64,000 nt of DNA from Candidatus Latescibacterota bacterium (GCA_964291625.2 OZ220090.1:800001-864000); one strand, 5' to 3'; counted from the stretch's first letter, positions 9,660 through 60,309 are shown. Translations and numbers: made by a program. The notes: a model not told the origin generated them from the sequence alone.

Positions 9660-10412
9660 CTAGTGTTCCTTGATGCTCCCCATGCGAATGTCGATGTCCT
9701 CGCGGTTGGCTACGCGCTCAAGGGCACCGTCGCGGATCCAGGCCATGCGGTCGCAGGCGCTCAGCATCTTGTCGTCGTGGGTCACCGTGATGATGGTGGA
9801 GCCCATCTCCCCCTGCAGCTTCTTCATGAAATCGATGATCGACTGGCCGGTGTTGCTGTCGAGGTTGCCCGTCGGCTCGTCGGCGAGAATGATCCGCGGG
9901 CTGTTGACGAAGGCCCGGGCGATGGCGACGCGCTGCTGCTGCCCGCCGCTCAGCTCCGAGGGCAGGTGATGGGCGCGGTCGGCGAGCCCGACGATGTCCA
10001 GACACTCCATGGCCCGCTTTTCGCCGTCGGCGGTGCTCATGCCCGCGAAGATCGTCGGCAGGGCGACGTTCATGAGCGCGCTCATCACCGGCAGCAGGTT
10101 GTAGGTCTGGAAGATGTAGCCGAGCTCGAAGCAGCGGACGGCGGCCAGCTTCTGCGGGGACAGGGACGCCAGGTTGACGCCCTCGATCAGGACCTCGCCG
10201 GAGGTCGGCGTCTGGAGCGCCCCGATCTGGTTGAACAAGGTGCTCTTGCCCGAGCCGGAGGGCCCCATGATGGCGAAGAACTCGTTCTCGTAGACCTTGA
10301 CCGTGAGACCCCGCAAGGCGTGGACGTGGGTCGACTCGTCGCGGTTCTTCGCGTTGTACACCATCGTCACGTCGCGGACATCGACGATGACGGAACCACT
10401 CACTTGCGCCAT
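9660..10412 (-). CDS. ABC transporter ATP-binding protein (LolD/MacB-like)
   Basis: [38 protein letters not shown] motifs. Confidence 0.88.
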
Positions 10413-10466
10413 GGACGGATCCGCTCCTGGCCGGAGCTCGGCGGGTTGGACCTGCGTGAGGGGGAA

Positions 10467-10496
10467 AATGTAGTTGCGGCCCCCGGCGGGGGTCAA
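10467..10496 (-). promoter_or_regulatory. sigma70-like promoter of the ABC ATPase
   Basis: Minus strand TTGACC-18bp-TACATT. Confidence 0.5.
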
Positions 10497-10558
10497 TCGA
10501 CCCCGGACAAGCGGGGACGGACGGGACCCGCGCCCCCCCGGCGCCGTCGACCCCGGCC

Positions 10559-12565
10559 TCACCCCGCCCTTCGGTCCTGGCCCTGCTCCTTCAGGCGTGT
10601 GATCTCGTCGCGCAGAGCCGCGGCCTTCTCGAACTCCAGCGCCGTGGCGGCCTCGTTCATCTGGCGCTCGAGCTCGGCCACCATGTCCTCTGCGGCATCC
10701 TCCGCGGCAGCCGCCGAATAGTCCCTCCGCGGCCGCTCCGCCGCCTCGGCCTGCTTGACGCTCTCGAGGACCGATGTGGCCTGCAGGATGTCGGCCCGGG
10801 TCCGCTGAATCGTCTGCGGCGTGATGCCGTGCTCCTCGTTGAAGGCCTGCTGCAGCCGGCGTCGGCGCCCGGTCTCCTCGATCGTCCCCCGCATGGAGTT
10901 CGTCATCTTGTCGCCGTAGAGGATGACCAGGCCGGCCGCGTTGCGGGCGGCGCGGCCCACCGTCTGGATCAGGGCCTGCTCGGAGCGCAGGAACCCCTCC
11001 TTGTCGGCGTCGAGAATCGCCACCAGCGAGACCTCGGGCAGGTCCAGGCCCTCGCGCAGCAGGTTGATCCCCACCAGGACGTCGAACTCCCCCAGGCGCA
11101 GGTCCCGCAGGATGCCGACCCGGTCGAGGGTGTCGATCTCGGAGTGCAGGTAGCGCACGCGGAACCCGAGCTGGGCCAGGTAGTCGGTGAGCTTCTCGGC
11201 CATGCGCTTGGTCAGCACCGTGACCAGGACCCTCTCGCCCCTCTCGGCGCGGGCCCTGATCTCGTCCATGAGGTCGTCGACCTGGTTGCCCAGGGGACGG
11301 ACCTCGATGACCGGATCGACCAGCCCCGTGGGCCGGATCACCTGCTCCACGACGACTCCGCCGGCGCGCTCGAGCTCGTAGGACGCGGGCGTGGCGGAGA
11401 GGAAGATCGTCTGCCCCATGTGCTCCTCGAACTCCTCGAAGTACAGGGGCCGGTTGTCGTACGCCGACGGCAGACGGAAGCCGTGCTCCACGAGCATGTC
11501 CTTGCGCGAGCGGTCGCCCCGCCACATGCCCCGCACCTGGGGGATCGTCATGTGGGACTCGTCGACGAAGAGCAGGAAGTCGTCGGGGAAGTAGTCCATC
11601 AGCACCCACGGCGGCGCCCCCGGTTCTCGGTGGTCCATGTAGCGCGAGTAGTTCTCGATCCCCGGGCAGAAGCCGATCTCGCGGATCATCTCCACGTCGT
11701 AGCGGGTGCGCGTCTCCAGACGATGGGCCTCGACGAGCTTCTCCTGCTCCTGCAACTCCAGCAGCCGCTGCTCCAGCTCGAGGAGGATCGCCTCGCAGGC
11801 GCGCTCGAGCTTGTCCTCGTCGGTGACGTAGGCCTTGGCGGGATAGAGGGTGACGCCCTGGCGCTCGTCGACCTGGCTCCCCGTGACCGCGTCGAGAATG
11901 GTGATCGCCTCCACCTCGTCTCCGAAGAGCTCGATGTGGACCGCGAGATCCTCGGCTGCGGGAACGACTTCGACCACGTCCCCGCGCACGCGGAAGCAGC
12001 CGCGCTTCAACTCGAGGTCGTTGCGGCTGTAGTAGATGTCGATCAGGCGGCGGAGCAGATCGTCCCTCTCGATACGGTCCCCCACCTCGACCGTGAGCCG
12101 CTGGGCCTCGAACTCGCGCGGCGAGCCGATCCCGTAGATGCAGGAGACGGTGGCTACGATGATCGTGTCCCGGCGCTCGAGTAGGGAGCTCATTGCCTTC
12201 AGGCGCAGGCGGTCGATCTCCTCGTTGATATCGACCTCCTTCTCGATGTACGTGTCGGTCGCCGGGCGGTAGGCTTCGGGCTGGTAGTAGTCGTAGTAGC
12301 TGACGAAATACTCCACGGCGTTGTCCGGGAAGTAGCCCCGCAACTCTCCGTAGAGCTGTGCCGCCAGGGTCTTGTTGTGGGAAATGACGAGGGCCGGCCG
12401 GTCGAAGTGGGCGATGACGTTGGCCATGGTGAAGGTCTTGCCGCTGCCCGTCACCCCCAGGAGGGTCTGGCAGGGGGCTCCCCGCTCGATGCCGTCGACG
12501 AGCTCGGCGATGGCCCGCGGTTGGTCTCCCTCGGGCTGGTAGTCGGCGACCAGACGGTATGACAC
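10559..12565 (-). CDS. uvrB: excinuclease ABC subunit B
   Basis: [37 protein letters not shown] motifs; C-terminal UVR domain. Confidence 0.97.
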
Positions 12566-22710: not shown

Positions 22711-23712
22711 TCAGCCGCCGGCCTTCTCGTAGAGATCGCGCCCCTCCACGAGGGCCTCGATCTTGCGATCGGCGACGAGACGCTTCAGCATCCAGAAACC
22801 GCAGTCGGGGTTGATGCAGGCGATGCGCTCCGGTCCGACTACCGCCACCGTCTCGTCGATCTGGCGGGCGATCTCCTCGGCACTCTCGACGACGTTCGAC
22901 TTGATGTCGATGACGCCGAGCCCCAGACGCACAGAGCCGGAGACCCTCTTCAAAGCGGGCAGCTCCCAGTTGCTGCGGTGAGCCAGTTCCAGCAGAACGT
23001 GGTCGGCGTGCAGCCCGCCCAGGTAGTCGATCAGGTTCTTCCAACTCCCCTGCTGGATGGTCTGTCCGCCGTAGTTGCCGAAACAGAGATGCACCGCCGG
23101 CGTGGTCCGTACCCGGTCGAGGATGCGGTTCATCCCTTCCAGGGCCCACTCCCACTCCTCGGAATGGCCGGGAAGATTGGCCTCGTCCACCTGTACCACA
23201 TCGGCCTCGATGTGGGCGACCTGCTCGGCGAGCACGTCGGCCATGGCCAGGCACAACTCCTGCCGGCTCGCGTAGTGGCGGTCGAGCAGGGTCTTGCACA
23301 GCATGTGCGGTCCCGTGAGGGTGAACTTGAGCTTGTGCGACGTCAGGCTTCGGGCGAGGGAGAAGTCGCCCGGCAGATCGAGTGAACCCGCCCCGATGGC
23401 TCCTTCCACGACCGCGCTCGGACGCCCGCGATAGGCCATCTCCGTCTCGCGGCGGAAGGCCTCCACGTCTTCCCATCCCACATGGCCGCGCACGTTTGCG
23501 AGAGGACGGACGAAGTACTCGATCATCCCGTTCGTCTCGGGATGGTTGACGTCGAATCGTCCCAGCTCGCCATCGGCGAGAATGTCGATGCCGGCGTTCT
23601 CCTGGGTCTTAAGTACAACCGCCATGGCGTCGGCCAGGTTCTGCTCCGAGGGCAGCGCCGCCAGCCAGTCCGGGATCGGATAGCTGCCCACCACCGTCGT
23701 CAGGATTCCCAA
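22711..23712 (-). CDS. cobalamin-independent methionine synthase II family protein (core MetE, single barrel)
   Basis: TTVVGSYP, DGELGR, QVDEA, HLCFGN, LELA, NPDCGF (Zn ligands). About 333 aa; TTG start with GAGGAG SD. Confidence 0.85.
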   Translation of the reverse strand: MGILTTVVGSYPIPDWLAALPSEQNLADAMAVVLKTQENAGIDILADGELGRFDVNHPETNGMIEYFVRPLANVRGHVGWEDVEAFRRETEMAYRGRPSAVVEGAIGAGSLDLPGDFSLARSLTSHKLKFTLTGPHMLCKTLLDRHYASRQELCLAMADVLAEQVAHIEADVVQVDEANLPGHSEEWEWALEGMNRILDRVRTTPAVHLCFGNYGGQTIQQGSWKNLIDYLGGLHADHVLLELAHRSNWELPALKRVSGSVRLGLGVIDIKSNVVESAEEIARQIDETVAVVGPERIACINPDCGFWMLKRLVADRKIEALVEGRDLYEKAGG

Positions 23713-42619: not shown

Positions 42620-43534
42620 ATGACCGAATCCCGCAGCCGGCGCCGCCTGCCGGCCTGGTTGAAGGCGAAGGCGCCCGGCAGCCCCGGCTACCTGAGGCTG
42701 AAGCGCCTGATCAAGGGGCTGGACCTGAACACGGTCTGCGAGAGCGCCCACTGCCCCAACATCGGCGAGTGCTGGTCCGCCGGCACCGCCACCTTCATGA
42801 TCCTCGGAGACGTGTGCACCCGCAGTTGCGGGTTCTGCGCGATCCAGACCGGGCGCCCCACCCACCTGGATCACGAGGAGCCCGAACGCGTGGCCGAGGC
42901 GATCGCGCGGCTGCACCTGCGCCACGCTGTCATCACCTCCGTCAACCGGGACGAGCTGTCCGACGGAGGCGCCTCGATCTTCGCCCGCACGATCCGCGCC
43001 GTTCACCAACGCTGCCCGGAGACCTCGGTGGAGGTGCTGATCCCCGACTTCCAGGGCAACTGGGAGGCCCTCGCCGAGGTCCTCGACGCCGGGCCCGAGA
43101 TCCTCAACCACAACCTCGAGACCGTGCCGCGGCTCTACCGCCGCATGCGGCCCCAGGCGCGATACGAGCGCTCCCTGGAGTTGCTCGACCGGGCCCGCTC
43201 CCTCGGGCCGGCGCCGACCAAGTCGGGCATGATGCTGGGCGCCGGCGAGACCCGAGCGGAGGTGGACCGGTCGATCCGCGACCTGGCCGCCGTCGGCTGC
43301 AGCATCCTGACCCTCGGCCAGTACCTGTCCCCCTCGGAGCAGCACGTGCCCGTGGACCGCTTCGTCCCCCCCGAGGAGTTCGAAGAGCTCGGAGTGTTCG
43401 CCCGGGCCGTAGGCTTCGGCCACGTCGAATCGGGTCCGCTGGTGCGCAGCTCCTACCACGCCGAGCGCCAGGTGGGCGACCTTGCGGCTGCCGGCGGAAG
43501 CTCTCCCGTGGAGATTGCCAGAGGAGGTCCATGA
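42620..43534 (+). CDS. lipA: lipoyl synthase
   Basis: CESAHCPNIGEC, CTRSCGFC, VRSSYHA motifs. Confidence 0.96.
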   Translation: MTESRSRRRLPAWLKAKAPGSPGYLRLKRLIKGLDLNTVCESAHCPNIGECWSAGTATFMILGDVCTRSCGFCAIQTGRPTHLDHEEPERVAEAIARLHLRHAVITSVNRDELSDGGASIFARTIRAVHQRCPETSVEVLIPDFQGNWEALAEVLDAGPEILNHNLETVPRLYRRMRPQARYERSLELLDRARSLGPAPTKSGMMLGAGETRAEVDRSIRDLAAVGCSILTLGQYLSPSEQHVPVDRFVPPEEFEELGVFARAVGFGHVESGPLVRSSYHAERQVGDLAAAGGSSPVEIARGGP

Positions 43535-44538
43535 CCCTCGACGAGAAGTCCCTGGCGGGCTACCTCAAGCGAAAGAAGCTGACCGGCGAGGGCGAGGGCG
43601 TACTCGATGTGCGCCAGGTCGGCGACGGGCTGAAGAACCTGGTCTACGTGGTGGTCACCACCGAGCAGCGGCTGGTGGTCAAGCAGGCCCACTGGCGGGT
43701 GCAGGTGAAGCAGCGGTGGTGGACGGACCGCAAGCGGCTCTTCGCCGAGAAGTCCTGCATCGAAACCCTGGCCAACATCCTGCCGCCCCAGGTGCTCCCC
43801 GAGGTCCTGCTGGAGGACCGGACCAACTTCGTCCTGGTGACCACGGCTCCCCCGCGCGACGCCACGGTCTGGGCCGACGAGCTGGACAGGGGCCGCATCG
43901 ATCTGCAGATCGCATCCCAGGCCGGCGAGCTGCTGGCGGCGGTGCACAACCAGACCGCCGAGATGGGCGATCTGGAGACGCTCTTCAAGGAGACCAAGCC
44001 CTTCGAGCAGCTCCGGGTGGAGCCCCTCTACGGGCAGGTGGCCGCCGCCTTCCCCGAGATCCGGCCGGCGGTCACGGCGCAGGCCCGGGCCCTGATGGAG
44101 GGTGGCCGCTGCCTGGTCCTCGGGGACCTGCGGCCACGCAACATCCTCATCGACAGCGGCGAGCTGTACCTGGTCGACTTCGCCACCGCCCACTTCGGGC
44201 AGCCCTCCTTCGACCTCGGCTTCTACGCCGGCGACATGTGCCTGAAGGCGATGCTCAACCACCCGCAGAAAGCCGCCTACCTCGAGGCGATCAACGTGTT
44301 CTGGGGTGCCTACACCCGCACCGCCGAGTACGGGGGAGCGGAGGCGGTGGGCAAGTCGGCGGTGCGCGACTTCGGCTGCCTGCTCCTGGCCCAGGTCTGC
44401 GGCCGGCGGCCGGTGTACGAGGGCGACGAGGCCTTCCGCGACCTCGCCTTCCGCATTTCGCGGAACCTTCTGTCCACCGAGGCGGAGAAGATCGAGGACA
44501 TTACCGAATCCATCAATCGAACCCTGATCGATGGATGA
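43531..44538 (+). CDS. APH/MtnK-like phosphotransferase
   Basis: VGDGLKNLVY, VVKQA, LGDLRPRNIL, LVDF, FDLGF motifs. SD GAGGAGG. Confidence 0.75.
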   Translation: MTLDEKSLAGYLKRKKLTGEGEGVLDVRQVGDGLKNLVYVVVTTEQRLVVKQAHWRVQVKQRWWTDRKRLFAEKSCIETLANILPPQVLPEVLLEDRTNFVLVTTAPPRDATVWADELDRGRIDLQIASQAGELLAAVHNQTAEMGDLETLFKETKPFEQLRVEPLYGQVAAAFPEIRPAVTAQARALMEGGRCLVLGDLRPRNILIDSGELYLVDFATAHFGQPSFDLGFYAGDMCLKAMLNHPQKAAYLEAINVFWGAYTRTAEYGGAEAVGKSAVRDFGCLLLAQVCGRRPVYEGDEAFRDLAFRISRNLLSTEAEKIEDITESINRTLIDG

Positions 44539-46130: not shown

Positions 46131-46787
46131 ATGCCCGCCATCGCCGACATCGGAACACGGATCGAGCTGGTGCCCATGGACGGGCACTTCCACGACATCA
46201 CCGTGGCCCTCTACCGTCAGCCCACCGCGGCCGGCCCCGCCTTCCTCGTGCACACCTACAGCGCCCTCGACGGAGCGGAGAGTCGCCTCGAGGACATCCG
46301 CAGCCTCATGATGACCCTGGGCGGCCTGCAGCCCTCGGTGGAGGCGCCCGGCCTGCTGGCCTTCCCCTGCGGGGCGGAGCACGGGCTGGCCGTCCGCCGC
46401 CTCTTCCTCGAGGCATGCAAGGCCGGCACGGCCGAGGACGCCTCCCCTCCCCCCCTGTCGACGGTGGACCGCAAGTCGGGACTGACCATCGTCGCCGAGC
46501 CCCTGGGAGAGGGTCAGTACCGGGTGGAGGCGGTGGGAGAGGCCGACGAGGCAGACCGCTCCCGCCGAGTGGGCGTGATCGTCAACGGCCTCATGAAGCT
46601 GGGGGAGATGCGGAGGGTCGAGGGCGCCGCCGACTGTGTCGGCTTCGACTGCGGCTACTCCCACGACGAGCTCGTGGGGCTGCTCCTGGTGCGCGCGCCG
46701 AACGTGCGCGCCATCGTCCGCGAACAACAGGCGCTGGCCGCCCGCGGCGTGCTGGCGGCACCGAGCCAACAGGGGGACGCACCATGA
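46131..46787 (+). CDS. hypothetical protein with duplicated F-x-C-G-x-x-H motif, first gene of corrinoid operon
   Basis: 218 aa; FPCGAEH and FDCGYSH within two similar ~45 aa segments. ATGA coupling to the next gene. Confidence 0.75.
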   Translation: MPAIADIGTRIELVPMDGHFHDITVALYRQPTAAGPAFLVHTYSALDGAESRLEDIRSLMMTLGGLQPSVEAPGLLAFPCGAEHGLAVRRLFLEACKAGTAEDASPPPLSTVDRKSGLTIVAEPLGEGQYRVEAVGEADEADRSRRVGVIVNGLMKLGEMRRVEGAADCVGFDCGYSHDELVGLLLVRAPNVRAIVREQQALAARGVLAAPSQQGDAP

Positions 46788-47815
46788 CAACTCCCGCCAT
46801 GAACAGCAGGCAACGGGTCCTGGCGGCCCTGGGGCGCCAGCCCGTGGACCGCACGCCGGTGTGCAATCCGACTTCGGTGGCGACGGTGGAGCTGATGGAC
46901 CTGGTGGACGCGCCCTTCCCCGCCGCCAACCGCGAGGCCGAGCTCATGGCCAGGCTGGCGGCTACCGGGTACACCGAACTCGGCTTCGACAGCATCATGC
47001 CCGTGTTCTCCATCATCCAGGAGTCCGCGGCCCTGGGCTGCAAGATCCAGTGGGAGCAGAAGGACAACTGGCCCACGGTGAAGATGCGCGAGCCGATCTG
47101 GACCTCCGTCGACGACATCGACATCACCCCCGGCCTGCTCACCCACCCGGACACGAAGTGCGTCCTCGACGCCCTCACCATCCTCCGCCGGGAGTACGGC
47201 GACGAGGCCGCCATCATCGGCAAGACCATGGGCCCCTGGTCTCTCGCCTATCACTGCTTCGGCGTGGAGCCCTTCCTGCTCATGTCCCTCGACGACCCGG
47301 ACCAGACGAAGCGCATCCTCGACGTCCTCAAGGAGGTGACCGTCGACTTCGGGATCGCCCAGGTCGAGGCCGGCGCCGACGCCCTCACCCTCCCCGACCA
47401 CGCCACCGGCGACCTGGTGAGCGGCTCCTACTACGAACGTTACCTGCGCGACCTGCACATCGAGTTCGCCGAGCGCATCCCCTGCCCCATCATCCTGCAC
47501 ATCTGCGGCCGCACCGTGGACCGCATGGAGTTCATCGCCCAGACGGGCATGGCCGCCTTCCACTACGACTCCAAGAACGAGCCCGACGAGTCGCGGGAGA
47601 TCGTGGGCGAGCGCATCAGCCTCGTGGGCAACATCAACAACCCCGAGACCTTGTTCTCCAAAGAGCCGGAAGACGTGGCCGCCGAGGTGGTGAAGAACCT
47701 CGATGCCGGCGTGCAGCTCGTCGGGCCGGAGTGCGCCATCCCCCTGCAGACCGCCATCGAGAACCTGCGCGCCATCCCGTCGGCGGTGCAGGAATGGCAT
47801 GCGCTGAACAACTGA
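46784..47815 (+). CDS. MtaA/CmuA family (URO-D fold) Zn methyltransferase
   Basis: SRQRVLAAL…VDRTPV, ESAALGC, GPWSLA, ILHICG (HxC) and GPEC Zn ligands. Confidence 0.88.
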   Translation: MTTPAMNSRQRVLAALGRQPVDRTPVCNPTSVATVELMDLVDAPFPAANREAELMARLAATGYTELGFDSIMPVFSIIQESAALGCKIQWEQKDNWPTVKMREPIWTSVDDIDITPGLLTHPDTKCVLDALTILRREYGDEAAIIGKTMGPWSLAYHCFGVEPFLLMSLDDPDQTKRILDVLKEVTVDFGIAQVEAGADALTLPDHATGDLVSGSYYERYLRDLHIEFAERIPCPIILHICGRTVDRMEFIAQTGMAAFHYDSKNEPDESREIVGERISLVGNINNPETLFSKEPEDVAAEVVKNLDAGVQLVGPECAIPLQTAIENLRAIPSAVQEWHALNN

Positions 47816-47902
47816 CGATGCCTGGTTCCCGCAACAGCCGACAGTGCAGATGGCGCGCCATCCCCGGGACCGTACGCCCGTGGCACCGGCAGGCGAACTG
47901 AC

Positions 47903-48652
47903 TTGCCTGAACTCGCCGACATCCACAACGAGATCCTCCGCTTCGAGATCGAGGAGTACATCGAAAGACCGGAGGAGATCGAGCGCTTCGTGGGGACCTT
48001 CGCCGCGGCGCGGCCGATCAACCAGGACATGGCAGCCGCCCTGATCGAGGGCGACCATCACACCGTCGACGCCCTCGCCGCGCAGGCCCTGGAGGAGGGT
48101 ATCGAGGCGCTGGAGGTGATGGACGACGGACTGATCGCGGGCATGGGCATCGTGGGCGTCAAGTTCCGGGAGAACTTCATCTTCGTGCCCGAGGTACTCG
48201 CCTGCGCCCGGGCCATGAAGGCGGGCATGGCCCACATCGAGCCGATCCTGTCGGCCTCGGGAGCCGAGAAGGCGGGCACGGTGGTGATGGGGACGGTGAA
48301 AGGCGACCTCCACGACATCGGCAAGAACCTGTGCATCATGATGCTCAACGGCGCCGGCTTCGACGTCATCGACCTCGGCGTCGACACCTCGGAAGACGAG
48401 TTCATCGACGCCGTGGAGGAGTCCGGGGCCCGGCTGCTGGGGATGTCGGCGCTGCTGACGACGACCATGCCCAACATGGGCAAGACGATCGAGGCCTTCA
48501 TCGACGCCGACCTGCGCGACGACGTGCAGATCATGGTGGGAGGCGCCCCGGTGACCCAGGAGTTCGCCGAGGACATGGGCGCCGACGGCTACGGCAAGGA
48601 CGCCCTGGCCTGCGTCGAGCTGGCCAAGCAGCTGGCTCAGAACGGGAGCTGA
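47903..48652 (+). CDS. methyltransferase cognate corrinoid protein (MtaC/MtbC-like)
   Basis: GLIAGM…FVPEVL cap domain; GDLHDIGKNL (DxHxxG), GMSALL, MVGGA. Confidence 0.93.
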   Translation: MPELADIHNEILRFEIEEYIERPEEIERFVGTFAAARPINQDMAAALIEGDHHTVDALAAQALEEGIEALEVMDDGLIAGMGIVGVKFRENFIFVPEVLACARAMKAGMAHIEPILSASGAEKAGTVVMGTVKGDLHDIGKNLCIMMLNGAGFDVIDLGVDTSEDEFIDAVEESGARLLGMSALLTTTMPNMGKTIEAFIDADLRDDVQIMVGGAPVTQEFAEDMGADGYGKDALACVELAKQLAQNGS

Positions 48653-49002
48653 TGGCTGGGGTCCGGCCCGAAGAGGTGCAGAAGCGCTTCGACCGCCTCA
48701 CCGAGATTTTCGGCGGCATCGTCGAGCACGCCGACGCCCAGGCGTCGTGGCGGTGCCCGTACCGGAACCGGCACGACCTGTGCACGGCCAAGTTCCACTG
48801 CAGGAACCAGACCCCCGCCGCACCCGACGCCGCCGAGCCGGCCGCCGACGGCGATCTCTACTGCTCCCACGACGGCCGCTTCGACTACCGCAGCGCCTGG
48901 GAGTCCGATCCGCGCACCGGCGAGCGGGCCCGCCAGCGCCTCGAGACCATCCGCGAGCGCGCCGCCGAGGGCCGCCAGGGGCGCCGCGGCCCCCGGCGCT
49001 AG
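48652..49002 (+). CDS. small Cys-rich hypothetical protein
   Basis: 116 aa; RCPYRNRHDLCTAKFHCRNQ…YCSHD; TGATG coupling. Confidence 0.75.
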   Translation: MAGVRPEEVQKRFDRLTEIFGGIVEHADAQASWRCPYRNRHDLCTAKFHCRNQTPAAPDAAEPAADGDLYCSHDGRFDYRSAWESDPRTGERARQRLETIRERAAEGRQGRRGPRR

Positions 49003-49020
49003 ACGGCCGGCCCCCCGGCC

Positions 49021-50667
49021 ATGGCCGTCGTCCGCGCCCCCGGCCTCGAGCCTCGGAGGCTGACACCGGGGCGCACCCTCTTCGACTACGCCGACGACCT
49101 GCGGCTGCGGGTCCCCACCTCGTGCCTGCGCAACGGCTACTGCCACGAGTGCGTGGTCGAGGTCCACGGGGGCATGGAGGCCCTGCGCCCCCGCTCCCCG
49201 GCGGAACAGTTCCTCCGCGATCCCTACCGCCTCGCCTGTCAGGCCCTGGTCGTCGAGGACCTCGACGTCGAGTTCGAGCCCCTCCGGCGGTCGCCGCAGA
49301 TCCTCTCCGACACCCGGCCCCGGCCTGTCGAGCTCGACCCCGTCGTCCGCCGCCGCGGCGACGAGGTCCTCTACGACGGCGAGCCCGTCGACCGCTACCG
49401 GGGGCACCTCTACGGCCTGGCCATCGATCTCGGGACGACGACGATCGCCATGGACCTCGTCGACCTGGAGACGGGCGGCTCGGTCTGCGTCACCTCCTTC
49501 GAGAACCCCCAGCGCTTCGGGGGCTCCGACGTGATGCACCGCATCACCTACGACGGCGGCCCCCACCACGGGGAGCTGCAGAAGGCGGTGGCCACCGCCC
49601 TCAACCACCACATCGCCGACATGGGCCGCCGCCTCGGCTTCGTCCGCCAGGAGATCTACGAGATCGCCGTCGCCGGCAACCCGACCATGCGCGACCTGCT
49701 CTTCCGCCTGGACGTGCAGCCCATCGGCACCCGGCCCTACAAGTCGACGGTGGAGCGCGCCGTCCTCGACGGCGAACGGTCCACCACCGCCTGGGTGGAG
49801 AAGTCGCGGCGCCTGGGGATCCGCGCCAACATCCACACCCGCGTCTACGGCCTGCCCCTGATCGCCAGCCAGGTGGGCGCCGACACCGCCGCCGACCTGG
49901 TCGCCTGCGACCTGCTGGACGCCGAGGGGGACGAGGTGACCCTCCTGGTCGACGTGGGCACCAACACCGAGGTCGTCATCGCCGGGCGGGGGCGCATGGT
50001 GGCCGCCTCCTGTCCGGCGGGCCCGGCCTTCGAGGGCGGCCTCGTGGGCTGCGGCATGCCGGGCTACGAAGGCGCCATCGACTCGGTGCGCATCGACGAG
50101 ACGGGGGACTTCTCCTGGACCACCATCGGCGGCGCCGAGCCCATGGGCATCTGCGGCTCGGGCCTGGTGGACCTGCTCGCCGAGCTGCGGCGCACCGGCC
50201 GCATGTCGGAGAAGGGAGTCCTCGCAGGCGGCCGCCGGCGCAACCCGCGGCTGCAGGTGGCGCCCGAGCAGGGCGTCACCTTCTCCGCCGAGGACGCCAG
50301 CCACCTGGCCCAGGCCAAGGCGGCCAACTACTGCGGCCAGTATCTTCTCCTGCGCGAGTTCGGCATCGATCCCGCCGACGTGTCGCGGCTCTACCTGGCC
50401 GGGGGCTTCGCCAACTACGTCGACGCGGCCAACGCCGTGGCCATCGGCTTCCTGGCGCCGGTGCCGGCGGAGCGCGTCGTCAAGGTCGGCAACGCCGCCC
50501 TCCAGGGTGCCCGCGAGGTCCTGCTCAGCCGCGGCCGGCGCCGGCAGCTGGAAGCGGCGGTGGCCGGCATCGAGCATGTGGAACTGGAGACGGTGCCCGA
50601 GTTCTTCGACGCCTTCGTCGACGGCTGCATGTTCCGGCCCATGCCCCCGCGCGTCCTGAACCGATAG
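49021..50667 (+). CDS. ASKHA-domain reductive activator of corrinoid proteins (RACo/DUF4445) with [2Fe-2S] domain
   Basis: [10 protein letters not shown]…RLACQ; [34 protein letters not shown] motifs. Confidence 0.92.
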
Positions 50668-50675
50668 GAGTGCCC

Positions 50676-51695
50676 TTGCGGAGCTTCTCCGAGAGACTGA
50701 ACGACCCCGAGCCCGTCCTCTTCGACGGCGGTTTCGGCACCCAGCTCTTCGCCCGCGGCGTCGAGCTGCCCAACAGCGCCCTGGCCAACGCCCACCACGC
50801 CGACACCGTGGTAGAGGTCCACCGGGCCTACATCGAGGCCGGATCGGAGATGGTGCAGACCAACACCTTCGTCGCCTCCGCCCTGCACCTGGAGATGGCC
50901 GATGCCGGCGGTCTCTCGGCCGGCCACCTGGCCGGACTCGCAGCCGCCCATGCCCGGCGGGCCGTCGAGGAGAGCGGACGGGAGGTCTACGTGGCCGGCT
51001 CCCTGGGGCCCTCGCCCGGCGCGATCGAGGCCGACGCGGGAGACACCGACTTCGGCATCGCCGACGAGAAGGTCCGCGCCGCCCACCAGGAGGTCGCCGA
51101 GAGCCTGGTCTCCGGCGGCGTCGACCTGTTCCTGGTGGAGACCATGTTCTCGGCCCGGGAGGCGGCGATCGCCGTCGACGTGGCCCGGGGGTTCGGCCTG
51201 CCCGTGGCCGTCTGCCTGACCTACAAGTACACCCGGGACCGCCGCACCAGGCAGGTCGTCTACCGCACCGACTGGGGCCACTCCCCCGCCGACGCCGTGG
51301 AGATCCTCGGCTCCGGGGAGCACTCCGGCGGCGACGACCTGCTGCCCTCCATCCGGCTCCTCGGCCTCAACTGCGGCGCCGAGTCCACCCGCGAGGAGCA
51401 CTCGGGCATGGCCTACGCCATCGAGGGCACGAGGCAGACCGCCGAGGCCCTCGCCGCGCGCGGCCTGAACGGCCTCCGCCTGGCCGCCTACCCGAACGCG
51501 GGCCTGCCGAAGCTGGACCGCCAGACCCGGCAGACCTACTACCAGCAGGGGCCGGAGGTGATGTCCGCGCACCTCCACGAGCTGCGCCAGGCGGGGGGCT
51601 GGCTCATCGGCGGCTGCTGCGGCACCACGCCCGACCACATCCGCGCCTTCCGCGACGGCCTCGCCGCCGGCGCCGGCGGCGCCGACGATGGCTGA
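50676..51695 (+). CDS. homocysteine S-methyltransferase family protein (stand-alone MetH N-terminal domain)
   Basis: [19 protein letters not shown]…[46 protein letters not shown] before TTG. Confidence 0.9.
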
Positions 51696-51957
51696 GTACC
51701 AGGTCCTCTACTGGCGGGACATCCCCGCCCAGGTCCGCGTCTTCGGCGGCCGGCGGCCCCTCTCCCGGCCGCTGCCCGACCGCTTCCAGCAGGCCATCGA
51801 CCGCGTCGCCATGCGCGATGGTCTCGCCGGCACCGACGACTACCTGGCCCAGTGGCAGTGGACGGAGAAGCGCACCGGCGACGGCGAGCCGGAGGAGCTG
51901 CTCCACCGCCTCATCGAGGAACTGGCAGCGGCGTACGACGCCGCCAACCCCGGCTGA
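51688..51957 (+). CDS. 'Virulence_fact' family small protein
   Basis: [13 protein letters not shown]…[14 protein letters not shown]…DDYLAQW signature. Confidence 0.75.
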
Positions 51958-58277: not shown

Positions 58278-59165
58278 GTGACTGAAGAAGGACCTCTGCC
58301 CAAGGTCGAGCCCGATTCTCTGCTGCAACCCTTGCGGCAGATCCTTCGTGACCAGAAGGCCGAGCTTCTTCAATGGCGTAACGAGCGGATACACGTTGGC
58401 TCGGTGGGAGAGCTGTATCGTCTCCATGGAACGGCCAGATCCGGTGCCGCGGAGCAAGGTTCGAGGAGGTCTCCGGAACGACGGCGGCGAATTCCGCACG
58501 GAGCACTATTGCCAGGCGGCGAGGCACCTGGGGCAGTCCACGGCAGCTATCTGAGTGGCCATCCCATCCCCGAGTATCCATGGCTCAGCTCCCGCAGGTG
58601 GATGACCACGACCGTGGTGAACTGGGGAACCGCCGCCGTGTCATGGCTCGACAGCCGGGAAGGCTCCGCGTTACCGCGATCCCTCCGCGAGCAAGCCGTC
58701 CAGCTCTGGCATCGGCGCGACACCCTCCTGGACCTCGTCGACGACCTGCCGAGAGCCGTGTGCCATCGAGACTACAATCCCGAAAATCTGTTCATCCCCC
58801 AGCTCCCATCGGGAGGAAGCCGGACGATCGTCATCGACTGGGACTGCCTCGGCATCGGTGTGCTCACCGAGGACCTGGGGGATCTCGTCGGCGAAGCGCT
58901 CGTGTTCCAGGGAGTCGAGCCCGACGGTGCACCAGAGTTCACGGAAGCGGTTCTGACGGCCTACCACGCGGGTCTGGTTCAAGCAGGATACGGGGTGAGC
59001 CCCGAGACCGTCCGGTCTGCTCTCGCGACCCTGATGTCCCTGCAGTGGTGCTTCCGTCTGATCTGCCGATATCGCGACACGGAGGACTCGGCCCTTCGTG
59101 AGCGATACACGCGGATCCTGGAGTTTGTCCTGAGCCAGGGCGATCCTCGCGAACAGGCGAGGTGA
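58278..59165 (+). pseudogene. aminoglycoside-phosphotransferase-like gene, probably decayed (internal deletion plus compensating frameshifts)
   Basis: The C-terminal half has CHRDYNPENLF and VIDWD. The protein-like segment HYCQAARHLGQ-HGSYL is split over two frames. GC is lower than in the neighbours. Confidence 0.55.
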
Positions 59166-59223: not shown

Positions 59224-60309
59224 CTACCGGGGACGCTCGCGAGCCGGCCGTCTTCGCCGCGGGGGGCCGCCGTCTCCGAGCTCTCCCCTGCGCCAGGCAG
59301 CGATGTAGGCGGCGCAGTGCTCGTCCCGGCCCAGCAGCACGTCCTCGGCCAGCCGGTAGGGGCGTGAGCCGCGGTCGAGGGCGAAGACCTTGTCGGGGCG
59401 GCTGGTCACCGGATCGATGATGCCGCTGTCCGCCCCGGCCTCGACCGCCAGGACCATGAAGACATCGTTGATCCACTTGCGGCTCGGGATGCCGAAAGAG
59501 ACGTTGCTCATCCCCCCGGTGATGTGGATCTCGGGGCCGTACTTCTGGCGCAGACCGGAGATCGCTTCGAAGCTGTGCCGTCCGAAGCGGCCGTCGACCG
59601 AGATCGGGAAGATCAGCGGGTCGATGTAGATGTCGCCGGCGCCGATCCCCTTCTCCAGGGCGGCGTCGACCATGGCGGAGGCATTGGCGATGCGCTCCTC
59701 GGCGCTCTCGGGCATCCCGGAATCACCGGCGGCGGTGACGATGACGTGGGCGTCGTGCTCGACGGCCAGGTCCAGGGCATCGATACGTTCGAGAGAGGCC
59801 GAGTTGAGCATGGGCCGCCCCTTGGACGCGTCCCACGCCCGCAGACCGACGGCGATGGTCTCGGCATTGGAGGAGTCGACGGAGACCGGGAGGCCGGTCA
59901 GGCCCTGCACCGTCGTCACGAGCCAGGCCATGGCCTCCTTCTGCTCTTCGAGCTTCAGCGAGATCTCGTCGACATTGAGGTCGAGGAAATCGGCCCCCGC
60001 CTGTTCCTGGCGCTGAACCATCCGTCTCAGGTAGTGCATCCCCTCGGCCGCGGTCTCCCGGTCGCCGCCCATCGCCGCCTGCACGGCGATCTTGACGTGC
60101 TTGACCCGTCCTTCCTCGTAATCCTGGGTGGCCTTCACCGCTTCCGGAATGACCAGGTGGCGCCCCTCGCCGTCGACCGAGCGGTAGCGCACCGCTTCCC
60201 GGCCGTCGCCGGTGGTCGTGACGAGCTTGCCGCGGCGCATCACCACCCGCGTGGTGTGGATGTTCTCGCCGATGATGACGAAATCGAGATCGGGGTTGTG
60301 CAGCTTCAT
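59224..60309 (-). CDS. methyltetrahydrofolate:corrinoid methyltransferase (pterin-binding, AcsE/MetH-like) with N-terminal insertion
   Basis: IIGENIH, QEQAGADFLDLNV, SVDSS, MLNSA, YIDPL, GGMSNVSFGIP motifs. Confidence 0.85.
   Translation of the reverse strand: MKLHNPDLDFVIIGENIHTTRVVMRRGKLVTTTGDGREAVRYRSVDGEGRHLVIPEAVKATQDYEEGRVKHVKIAVQAAMGGDRETAAEGMHYLRRMVQRQEQAGADFLDLNVDEISLKLEEQKEAMAWLVTTVQGLTGLPVSVDSSNAETIAVGLRAWDASKGRPMLNSASLERIDALDLAVEHDAHVIVTAAGDSGMPESAEERIANASAMVDAALEKGIGAGDIYIDPLIFPISVDGRFGRHSFEAISGLRQKYGPEIHITGGMSNVSFGIPSRKWINDVFMVLAVEAGADSGIIDPVTSRPDKVFALDRGSRPYRLAEDVLLGRDEHCAAYIAAWRRGELGDGGPPRRRRPARERPR

Follow-up and report, generated by a model that had tools for sequence, protein, structure and literature searches.

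What does a corrinoid operon built around an MtaA-type methyltransferase do in a bacterium with a gene for aerobic respiration, and in which direction would it move methyl groups? The question is raised by seven genes at 46131-51957 of a 64,000-nt stretch of DNA from Candidatus Latescibacterota bacterium (GCA_964291625.2 OZ220090.1:800001-864000), which we call the window and from whose first letter all coordinates are counted. In order, the operon encodes U1, a protein of no described family; MT2, a corrinoid methyltransferase of the MtaA/CmuA family; CoP, a corrinoid protein; U4, a small module with four cysteines and one histidine; RACo, an activase; HcyMT, a homocysteine methyltransferase; and VirF, a small Virulence_fact protein. 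With the gene content, motifs, conservation and co-occurrence of parts observed here, we class it as a split methionine synthase or corrinoid hub whose entry module is of the MtaA type and which brings two novelties, an obligate partner family and an activase domain. Our preferred reading, to which we give an even chance, is that U1 and MT2 load this hub with a methyl group from an S-methyl (or Se-methyl) donor.

According to this reading, MT2 and its constant partner U1 would transfer the methyl group of a methylated sulfur (possibly selenium) compound to Co(I), the His-Cys-Cys zinc site of MT2 holding the sulfur of the leaving group, and CoP would carry the methyl group on cobalt as the hub. 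HcyMT would pass it to homocysteine, giving methionine, and a stand-alone pterin-binding enzyme encoded nearby would exchange it with tetrahydrofolate (THF). At the expense of ATP and an electron, RACo with its U4 domain would reduce oxidised Co(II) back to active Co(I). By analogy with the MtgBCDE system, U1 and MT2 would be the substrate-specific entry, taking the place of MtgB.

Conservation of the U1-MT2 pair and the corrinoid core

The seven plus-strand open reading frames (ORFs) were confirmed at the coordinates given in the initial annotation, which had been made from the sequence alone, and every motif it had named was found in U1, MT2, CoP, U4 and HcyMT. When each ORF was searched against hidden Markov models, five were given clear Pfam or NCBIfam families and U1 and U4 none, even at E<=10. 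Both of the latter are genuine conserved genes: of the candidates that were scored, 795 proved related to U1 and 33 to U4 at E<=0.001.

To describe the surroundings of U1 in other organisms, one-genome-per-species bacterial and archaeal genomes were scanned with patterns from a U1 alignment. This gave 331 confirmed loci, the best 80 of which were searched by tblastn with the window proteins (at least 50% query coverage); contig edges cut many loci, so that the counts per gene are lower bounds. By label, these 80 loci comprise 46 of Poribacteria, 23 of Latescibacterota, 3 of Gemmatimonadota/Gemmatimonadaceae, 2 of Acidobacteriota, 1 of Opitutales and 5 unclassified. U1 was present in all 80, and MT2 lay directly 3' of it on the same strand in 79. 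CoP was found in 54, U4 in 52 and RACo in 51, in every case downstream of CoP. Identity to the window protein was 77-97% for MT2 and 53-95% for U1 and, nearest relatives excepted, about 41-52% for U4 and 62-69% for RACo. The two unannotated ORFs accompany corrinoid genes in other genomes too, and this comparison of sequences supports a gene set conserved well beyond chance as one corrinoid methyl-transfer module.

Within the window's phylum, U1 occurs in 125 of 168 genomes, mostly as a single copy, and is concentrated in four families (122/131 genomes), with a fifth family adding 2/2. An MT2 orthologue at least 67% identical accompanies it in 124 of the 125 positive genomes, and the sole exception has U1 at a contig edge. 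Five genomes carry the U1-MT2 pair alone; in all five, U4 and RACo accompany an orthologous CoP (76-79% identical) at another locus. The system thus consists of two sub-modules, U1+MT2 and CoP+U4/RACo, which suggests that a pair on the donor side works with a unit for carriage and activation.

The same genes recur in a distant lineage. Metagenome contigs searched with divergent U1 members gave 393 confirmed loci, and among the 80 of them that were retained, at 40% or more query coverage, MT2 was found in 64 (60-69% identical), HcyMT directly upstream of U1 in 60 (28-34% identical), CoP in 47, U4 in 38, VirF in 29, Pterin_bind in 26 and RACo in 22. The usual order is Pterin-VirF-HcyMT-U1-MT2-(Pterin)-CoP-U4-RACo, and in one locus a classical MetF gene adjoins or lies near Pterin_bind. 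From the presence of the same genes in this divergent marine-metagenome lineage we conclude that the eight-gene set is old and was inherited as a unit.

Some irregular arrangements of the core were also seen. In the Poribacteria-labelled locus L012, an HNH endonuclease gene and a small unannotated ORF (9846-10631) stand between MT2 and CoP, and a gap of about 0.9-1 kb at this place is found in L015, L017, L018, L021 and L049, likewise labelled Poribacteria. One Acidobacteriota-labelled contig of a metagenome-assembled genome carries the core U1-MT2-CoP-U4-RACo twice, about 50 kb apart and with the same percent identities to the window proteins (L026, L027).

The zinc site of MT2, the U1 family and the activase

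MT2 (46784-47815, plus strand, 343 aa) is a corrinoid methyltransferase of the URO-D fold (Pfam URO-D, 8.8e-63). It scored 252.1 bits against TIGR01463 mtaA_cmuA, above the family cut-off of 235.4, and 260.3 bits against PRK06252 (cut-off 244), but stayed under the equivalog cut-offs of MtaA_Meth (235 vs 400 bits) and MtbA (195.5 vs 600 bits). Residues 9-340 align full-length to the MtaA structure 4ay7 (E 9.9e-51), and the motifs HIC at 239 and PEC at 315 provide a triad, His239-x-Cys241...Cys317, that falls in the matching MtaA columns, where the aligned residues presumably bind zinc. The triad is invariant in 27/27 MT2 sequences, of which the mean column identity is 86%.

This invariant His-Cys-Cys site is the reason why we look for the donor among sulfur and selenium compounds. 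According to the text of PMC10418091, UroD-family methyltransferases with a His-Cys-Cys zinc site act on S or Se, and O-demethylases replace the Cys ligands. In the same family, MtpA is described as a methylmercaptopropionate (MMPA):cob(I)alamin methyltransferase (10.1101/548461). Among the donors considered in the initial annotation, S-methyl compounds are therefore retained as the favoured class and methyl halides have become less likely. A methyl halide, by analogy with CmuA, would agree with the passing score of MT2 in the joint MtaA/CmuA model and with that part of the sequencing-run evidence which points to sponge or marine samples. On the other hand, the halide enzyme CdmB is reported neither to need nor to bind zinc (PMC13222342), the His-Cys-Cys pattern of MT2 is the one tied to S/Se substrates (PMC10418091), and CmuA is fused with its corrinoid domain, whereas MT2 and CoP are separate genes. 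We regard a halide donor as very improbable.

A narrower form of the preferred reading, which we hold to be rather unlikely, is that U1 and MT2 form a B12-dependent demethylase for sulfur compounds derived from dimethylsulfoniopropionate (DMSP), namely MMPA, dimethyl sulfide (DMS), methanethiol or DMSP itself, and hand the methyl directly on to homocysteine or folate in oxygen-respiring marine and sponge-associated bacteria. If true, corrinoid chemistry would provide a second route alongside DmdA, and the pair would become a candidate for the aerobic demethylation of MMPA to mercaptopropionate, with U1 as a new class of obligate subunit for MtaA-type enzymes. To our knowledge, which here reflects the older DMSP literature, the enzyme of this aerobic step has never been identified.

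The genome holds two URO-D genes, MT2 and one on contig C1, which we take as a candidate hemE from its high family-model score (335.5 bits). MT2 paralogues at 44-47% identity occur in 15 genomes of the phylum without U1. They were considered as further members of the system and rejected, as the four that were checked are lone URO-D genes in unrelated contexts; these four (L173-L176, in G013, G016, G021 and G099) have no adjoining corrinoid gene, and two lie near DUF6786 genes. In a marine metagenome locus (L150, 7168-9314), MT2 is duplicated in tandem after U1, and the copies share 65% and 63% identity with the window MT2.

U1 (46131-46787, plus strand, 218 aa) carries two FxCGxxH motifs, FPCGAEH at residue 78 and FDCGYSH at 172. 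Its relatives are all unnamed or 'hypothetical' and without Pfam domains, and a profile search of 1.84 billion representatives gave 279 sequences at E<=1e-3, nearly all of 200-230 aa or fragments. C80, H84, C174 and H178 are invariant in 55 U1 sequences of the window lineage. The divergent lineage is 24-32% identical, has a different C-terminal tail and lacks Cys in some members, so that a catalytic metal site is not a family-wide feature and, as judged from these alignments, the Cys/His sites are no family-wide requirement. An AlphaFold2 (AF2) model of U1 (pLDDT 88.9, pTM 0.84) displays an order of strands and helices repeated twice. This repetition in the model suggests an internal duplication; a BLAST comparison of the two halves was not significant (E 1.8 and 19). 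The halves are separated in three longer proteins of 257-270 aa (P0085, P0100 and P0110) by 40-60 additional residues of low complexity in which E, G, R and S abound.

No relative of known structure emerged for U1. Foldseek of the model found no PDB entry at E<=0.001, and the best hit of VIA-align wide was a urea carboxylase domain (Z 7.5 over 86 residues), with HIT-like and ACT-like folds at Z 4-5; these scores lie in the range common among unrelated models and give no convincing PDB match. Sequence profiles of the PDB gave a best E of 0.08 for U1 and nothing for U4, and the ESM Atlas held no usable match for relatives of either. DUF1638 (PF07796), a factor of a known split methionine synthase discussed below, was not among the Pfam results of U1 at E<=10 nor in the fold-search listings, a profile-profile comparison not having been made. 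We infer that U1 touches MT2 physically, as we infer the donor class and the direction of flow; a predicted U1-MT2 complex scored 0.00 against a mark of 0.32, in a run without controls.

The hub itself would be CoP (47903-48652, plus strand, 249 aa), with a B12 cap (PF02607, 1.2e-21), a B12-binding domain (PF02310, 3.1e-27) and the DxHxxG motif as DLHDIG at residue 135. It is the sole methyltransferase-type B12-binding gene found in the genome. It stays below the cut-offs for MtgC, with 204.8 vs 370 bits for MtgC_2, the best NCBIfam model, and 176.4 vs 310 bits for MtgC.

RACo (49021-50667, plus strand, 548 aa) carries Fer2 (1.4e-06), Raco_middle (3.2e-37) and RACo_C_ter (7e-66), all above cut-offs. 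U4 (48652-49002, plus strand, 116 aa) runs in frame with RACo, with no intervening stop, in 37 of the 51 loci that carry both, and two 661-aa fused proteins with Fer2, Raco_middle and RACo_C_ter were found in a protein collection. Because of these fusions, we interpret U4 as the N-terminal domain of this RACo subfamily, which by its sequence relationships happens to be split off as a separate gene in the window and is not an independent partner. The initial annotation had spoken of two uncharacterised Cys-containing partners; this description stands for U1, an undescribed family, and has to be given up for U4. C35, C44, C50, C71 and H73 of U4 are invariant in 20 sequences, and the domain may contain a metal; its structural model is poor (pLDDT 67.5, pTM 0.31).

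Proposed methyl exits, methionine synthesis and direction of flow

Two probable exits from the hub are encoded in the window. HcyMT (50670-51695, plus strand, 341 aa, GTG start) belongs to PF02574 (1.4e-50) and has GLNC at 232 and GGCC at 314; the genome has three further PF02574 genes. The second was overlooked in the initial annotation: a stand-alone Pterin_bind gene at 59224-60309 (minus strand, 361 aa, PF00809, 7e-23), of the methyl-THF:corrinoid methyltransferase type, probably serves this system as its folate module. Its orthologues lie inside the cluster of other genomes (45-53% and 61-63% identity). The only other Pterin_bind gene of the genome, on contig C1, we take to be folP, unchecked. 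VirF (51688-51957, plus strand, 89 aa; PF13769, 1.7e-22), a small protein to which no role is assigned, travels with these modules and was found beside HcyMT or Pterin_bind in 19 of the 80 genome loci and in 29 of the 80 divergent ones.

Beside the constant U1-MT2-CoP-U4/RACo core, HcyMT (28/80 genome loci), Pterin_bind (12/80) and a fused MTHFR + DUF5981 gene, here called MTHFR-like (13/80), swap in and out. This comparative genomics supports the earlier suggestion that homocysteine and THF are alternative exits for the methyl group. Variant A, U1-MT2-CoP-U4RACo-HcyMT, was examined in five genomes, all with a full-length MetH frame of 1222-1247 aa and none with a stand-alone pterin module detectable with the window protein at E<=1e-20. 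Variant B ends in RACo-PhyH-MTHFR-like-Pterin, and its pterin orthologue is 61-63% identical in 5/5 genomes. Variant C is that of the window, with both exits and no MetH. The variant B genomes G178-G182 (L012, L015, L017, L021 and L022) have, alongside their RACo-based cluster, separate PF02965 matches of about 250 residues in frames of 281-386 aa in place of a full-length MetH, and one variant B genome has an extra partial PF02965 match in a 644-aa frame.

The genome of the window (95% complete) has no classical MetH, as it gave no match to the MetH activation domain PF02965 and no second methyltransferase-type B12 domain. A genome-wide search for full-length MetH had been suggested with the initial annotation, and its negative outcome, with four split parts present, agrees with the split methionine synthase which that annotation had put forward. 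A 1219-aa frame around the Pterin_bind match at 59416-60021 (minus strand) was discarded as a MetH candidate; it is a GC-rich artefact around the 361-aa gene and has no B12-binding match. In the absence of classical MetH, the same hub probably doubles as the B12-dependent methionine synthase of this genome, and it is this absence that gives indirect support for a role in methionine prototrophy. Three short Meth_synt_2 genes of about 300 residues each could also encode cobalamin-independent or methylcobalamin-dependent homocysteine methyltransferases and bear on methionine supply; one of them, MetE C-terminal-like, lies in the window at 22747-23649 (minus strand).

The operon might even be a split methionine synthase and nothing else, with MT2 and U1 as built-in parts (an alternative homocysteine module, or helpers in corrinoid protection or reloading) and no extra donor or acceptor. 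The four MetH functions on separate genes in a genome without classical MetH would fit this explanation, as would the frequent position of HcyMT directly upstream of U1 in the divergent loci (60/80). PF02965 is patchy in the phylum (68/168 genomes), and in one genus it is missing from all 31 genomes (0/31), each of which has U1 and MT2 (31/31). Moreover, DUF1638, required by the split MetH of Phaeobacter according to PMC5764234, is absent from the window's genome and five other carriers (0/6), and U1 or U4 could substitute for it. On the other hand, in one family the cluster stands alongside MetH in 29/31 genomes, and variant A has its own HcyMT beside a full-length MetH in 5/5, so that the cluster there cannot be a mere replacement of MetH. 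An adjacent HcyMT thus had to be rejected as a marker of MetH loss. Variants without adjoining HcyMT carry pterin, MTHFR-like and PhyH genes, the five genomes with U1-MT2 apart from CoP-U4-RACo argue against a role in reactivation, and the genetically defined Phaeobacter split MetH is reported to need no URO-D protein (PMC5764234).

The preferred reading, methyl capture by U1 and MT2, fits variant A, where the search turned up no methyltransferases next to CoP other than MT2 and HcyMT; since the window protein detected no pterin module there, MT2 is the only candidate for the donor side. In addition, a GntR/FCD regulator stands upstream and divergent in 28 of the 80 genome loci. Such upstream regulators are common for catabolic operons, and this context, as far as gene neighbourhoods can tell, would count for methyl capture.

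The opposite direction has to be weighed as well. Methyl groups might flow from methyl-THF through the pterin module to CoP, and MT2 with U1 would then methylate a thiol other than homocysteine, or sulfide or selenide, with HcyMT acting in parallel. MT2 is a full-length relative of MtaA with the thiol-binding zinc triad, transfer from methyl-Co to a thiolate is described as the favourable direction (10.1101/548461), and ClMlp2 is reported to methylate selenide and sulfide in vitro (PMC10418091). The Pterin_bind and MTHFR-like genes in 12 and 13 of the 80 genome loci, and Pterin_bind in 26 of the 80 divergent ones, once with classical MetF, could supply such a flow, and the near-universal single-copy distribution fits biosynthetic housekeeping. 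This explanation has difficulty with the 5/5 variant A genomes, in which no pterin module was found with this query, leaving methionine as the only methyl source besides MT2, and with the GntR/FCD regulators; furthermore, the neighbourhoods contain no candidate thiol acceptor or genes for its biosynthesis.

Several points weigh against methyl capture. MtaA-type enzymes normally run from methyl-Co to a thiol. Methylation of Co(I) by a plain thioether is described as thermodynamically unfavourable (10.1101/548461), and in the pterin and MTHFR-like variants a thioether could pass its methyl to THF only uphill, so that either a sulfonium donor is needed or the flow is reversed; transfer to homocysteine would be roughly neutral. 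The near-universal, single-copy presence of U1 and MT2 in four families looks more like housekeeping than accessory catabolism, the retention of MetH in 5/5 genomes with adjacent HcyMT removed the marker mentioned above, and the Cys/His motifs of U1 are missing in some divergent members. The flanking genes differ between loci (PhyH, Ldh_2, GFO_IDH_MocA, 2-oxoacid dehydrogenase, cupins, hydrolases) and gave no consistent clue to a donor or transporter. What we say of the functions of the cluster proteins is deduced from sequence. Because the thermodynamics of thioethers is the weak point, we keep reversed flow as a tentative possibility, and a methionine synthase without further donor or acceptor as an improbable one.

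Known systems, habitat and surroundings of the operon

The closest parallels are the split MetH and MtgBCDE systems of Phaeobacter inhibens and Ruegeria pomeroyi. The former is described as a three-part methionine synthase with a RamA-like activase and DUF1638 as an unexplained required factor (PMC5764234), and the latter as one corrinoid protein plus a bidirectional pterin enzyme, shared by the demethylation of glycine betaine and the making of methionine (PMC12478193). As in the window, these accounts give separate PF02574, cap+B12 and pterin modules, a RamA/RACo-like activase and, proposed in our case, one corrinoid protein for several methyltransferases; the systems often replace classical MetH (PMC5764234, PMC12478193), which the window's genome likewise lacks. 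In contrast to MtgBCDE, the donor module of the window would be an MtaA-like URO-D enzyme with U1 and not the MttB-family MtgB. The initial annotation had seen no MtaB/MttB-type module in the window; for MttB this extends to the whole genome, and MtaB was not searched for. Further differences from both systems are the absence of DUF1638, the U4 domain of the activase and the scores of CoP below the MtgC cut-offs. The main texts of PMC5764234 and PMC12478193, supplements not covered, mention no URO-D or MtaA gene in their clusters.

MtaA, MtsA and MtpA/MtpC of methanogens share with MT2 the URO-D fold and the His-x-Cys...Cys zinc site. In contrast to them, MT2 is below the MtaA/MtbA equivalog cut-offs and has an obligate partner, U1, of which we know no counterpart in methanogens. 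Its host has a heme-copper oxidase gene and is no methanogen, and the proposed acceptors are homocysteine and THF, not coenzyme M. MtpA, as described, shows that the MtaA family can serve the donor side with the thioether MMPA (10.1101/548461). In type 1 mlp clusters, the His-Cys-Cys site was likewise used to argue for methyl-S/methyl-Se metabolism (PMC10418091). As described there, these clusters have two or three Mlp paralogues, at least an Mlp2 and an Mlp3 among them, but no folate methylases, and their hosts are exclusively obligate anaerobes, for the most part Firmicutes (PMC10418091), whereas the window has one URO-D gene in the cluster, U1, HcyMT, pterin and VirF modules, and an oxidase gene in the host. 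The four-component O-demethylase and Cdm systems of acetogens follow the same logic with the same four protein superfamilies, but their methyltransferase I has altered zinc ligands or none and takes O-methyl or halide donors (PMC13222342), and as described they lack, unlike the window, a homocysteine module, U1 and U4. The open-access papers searched, supplements not covered, describe neither this gene set nor U1 or U4, and do not connect PF13769 with methionine synthesis.

Corrinoid hubs were recently shown to link osmolyte demethylation with methionine synthesis in abundant marine bacteria. MtaA-type enzymes are thought typical of methanogens and strict anaerobes, and with the operon such an enzyme, in bacteria that have an oxidase gene, would become another type of entry to these hubs; the U1 family and the U4 domain of the activase would join it as parts not described before. 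The oxidase gene is COX1 (PF00115, 4.1e-151), a gene for aerobic respiration from which we do not read the physiology. Should the donor prove to be a methylated sulfur compound, the operon may represent a use of such compounds that has escaped notice, and would bear on marine sulfur and methyl cycling, B12 demand and the methionine supply of sponge-associated bacteria. If MT2 and U1 are instead built-in parts of a methionine synthase, the view of how B12-dependent methionine synthesis can be assembled would have to be revised.

As to habitat, a share of 0.27 or more of the sampled words was present in 18 sequencing runs. Sponge metagenome is the label of 8 of them and marine metagenome that of 1, and the other 9 bear coded organism names. 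In one RNA library (four runs examined), near-identical contigs cover 46440-46909, 49014-49976 and 50502-51133, and flanking genes too, the first crossing the U1/MT2 junction and the last the RACo/HcyMT junction. They are compatible with transcription, without being proof of it, and their depth cannot rank genes.

The seven genes are closely packed, with spacings from U1 to VirF of -4, 87, -1, 18, 2 and -8 bases. The operon is flanked by unrelated housekeeping genes, upstream for an S41 peptidase, lipoyl synthase, an APH kinase and GHL10, and downstream for mnmG, CBM9 and adenylate kinase. Two genes for APH-family phosphotransferases are present, one near the cluster (43531-44538, plus strand) and one near the pterin gene (58278-59165, plus strand). 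In the 80 genome loci, accessory neighbours include PhyH (16/80) and Ldh_2 (4/80). In the Poribacteria-labelled loci L033, L046, L051 and L071, a gene of the Ldh_2 family (malate/L-lactate/sulfolactate dehydrogenase-like) stands between VirF and HcyMT.

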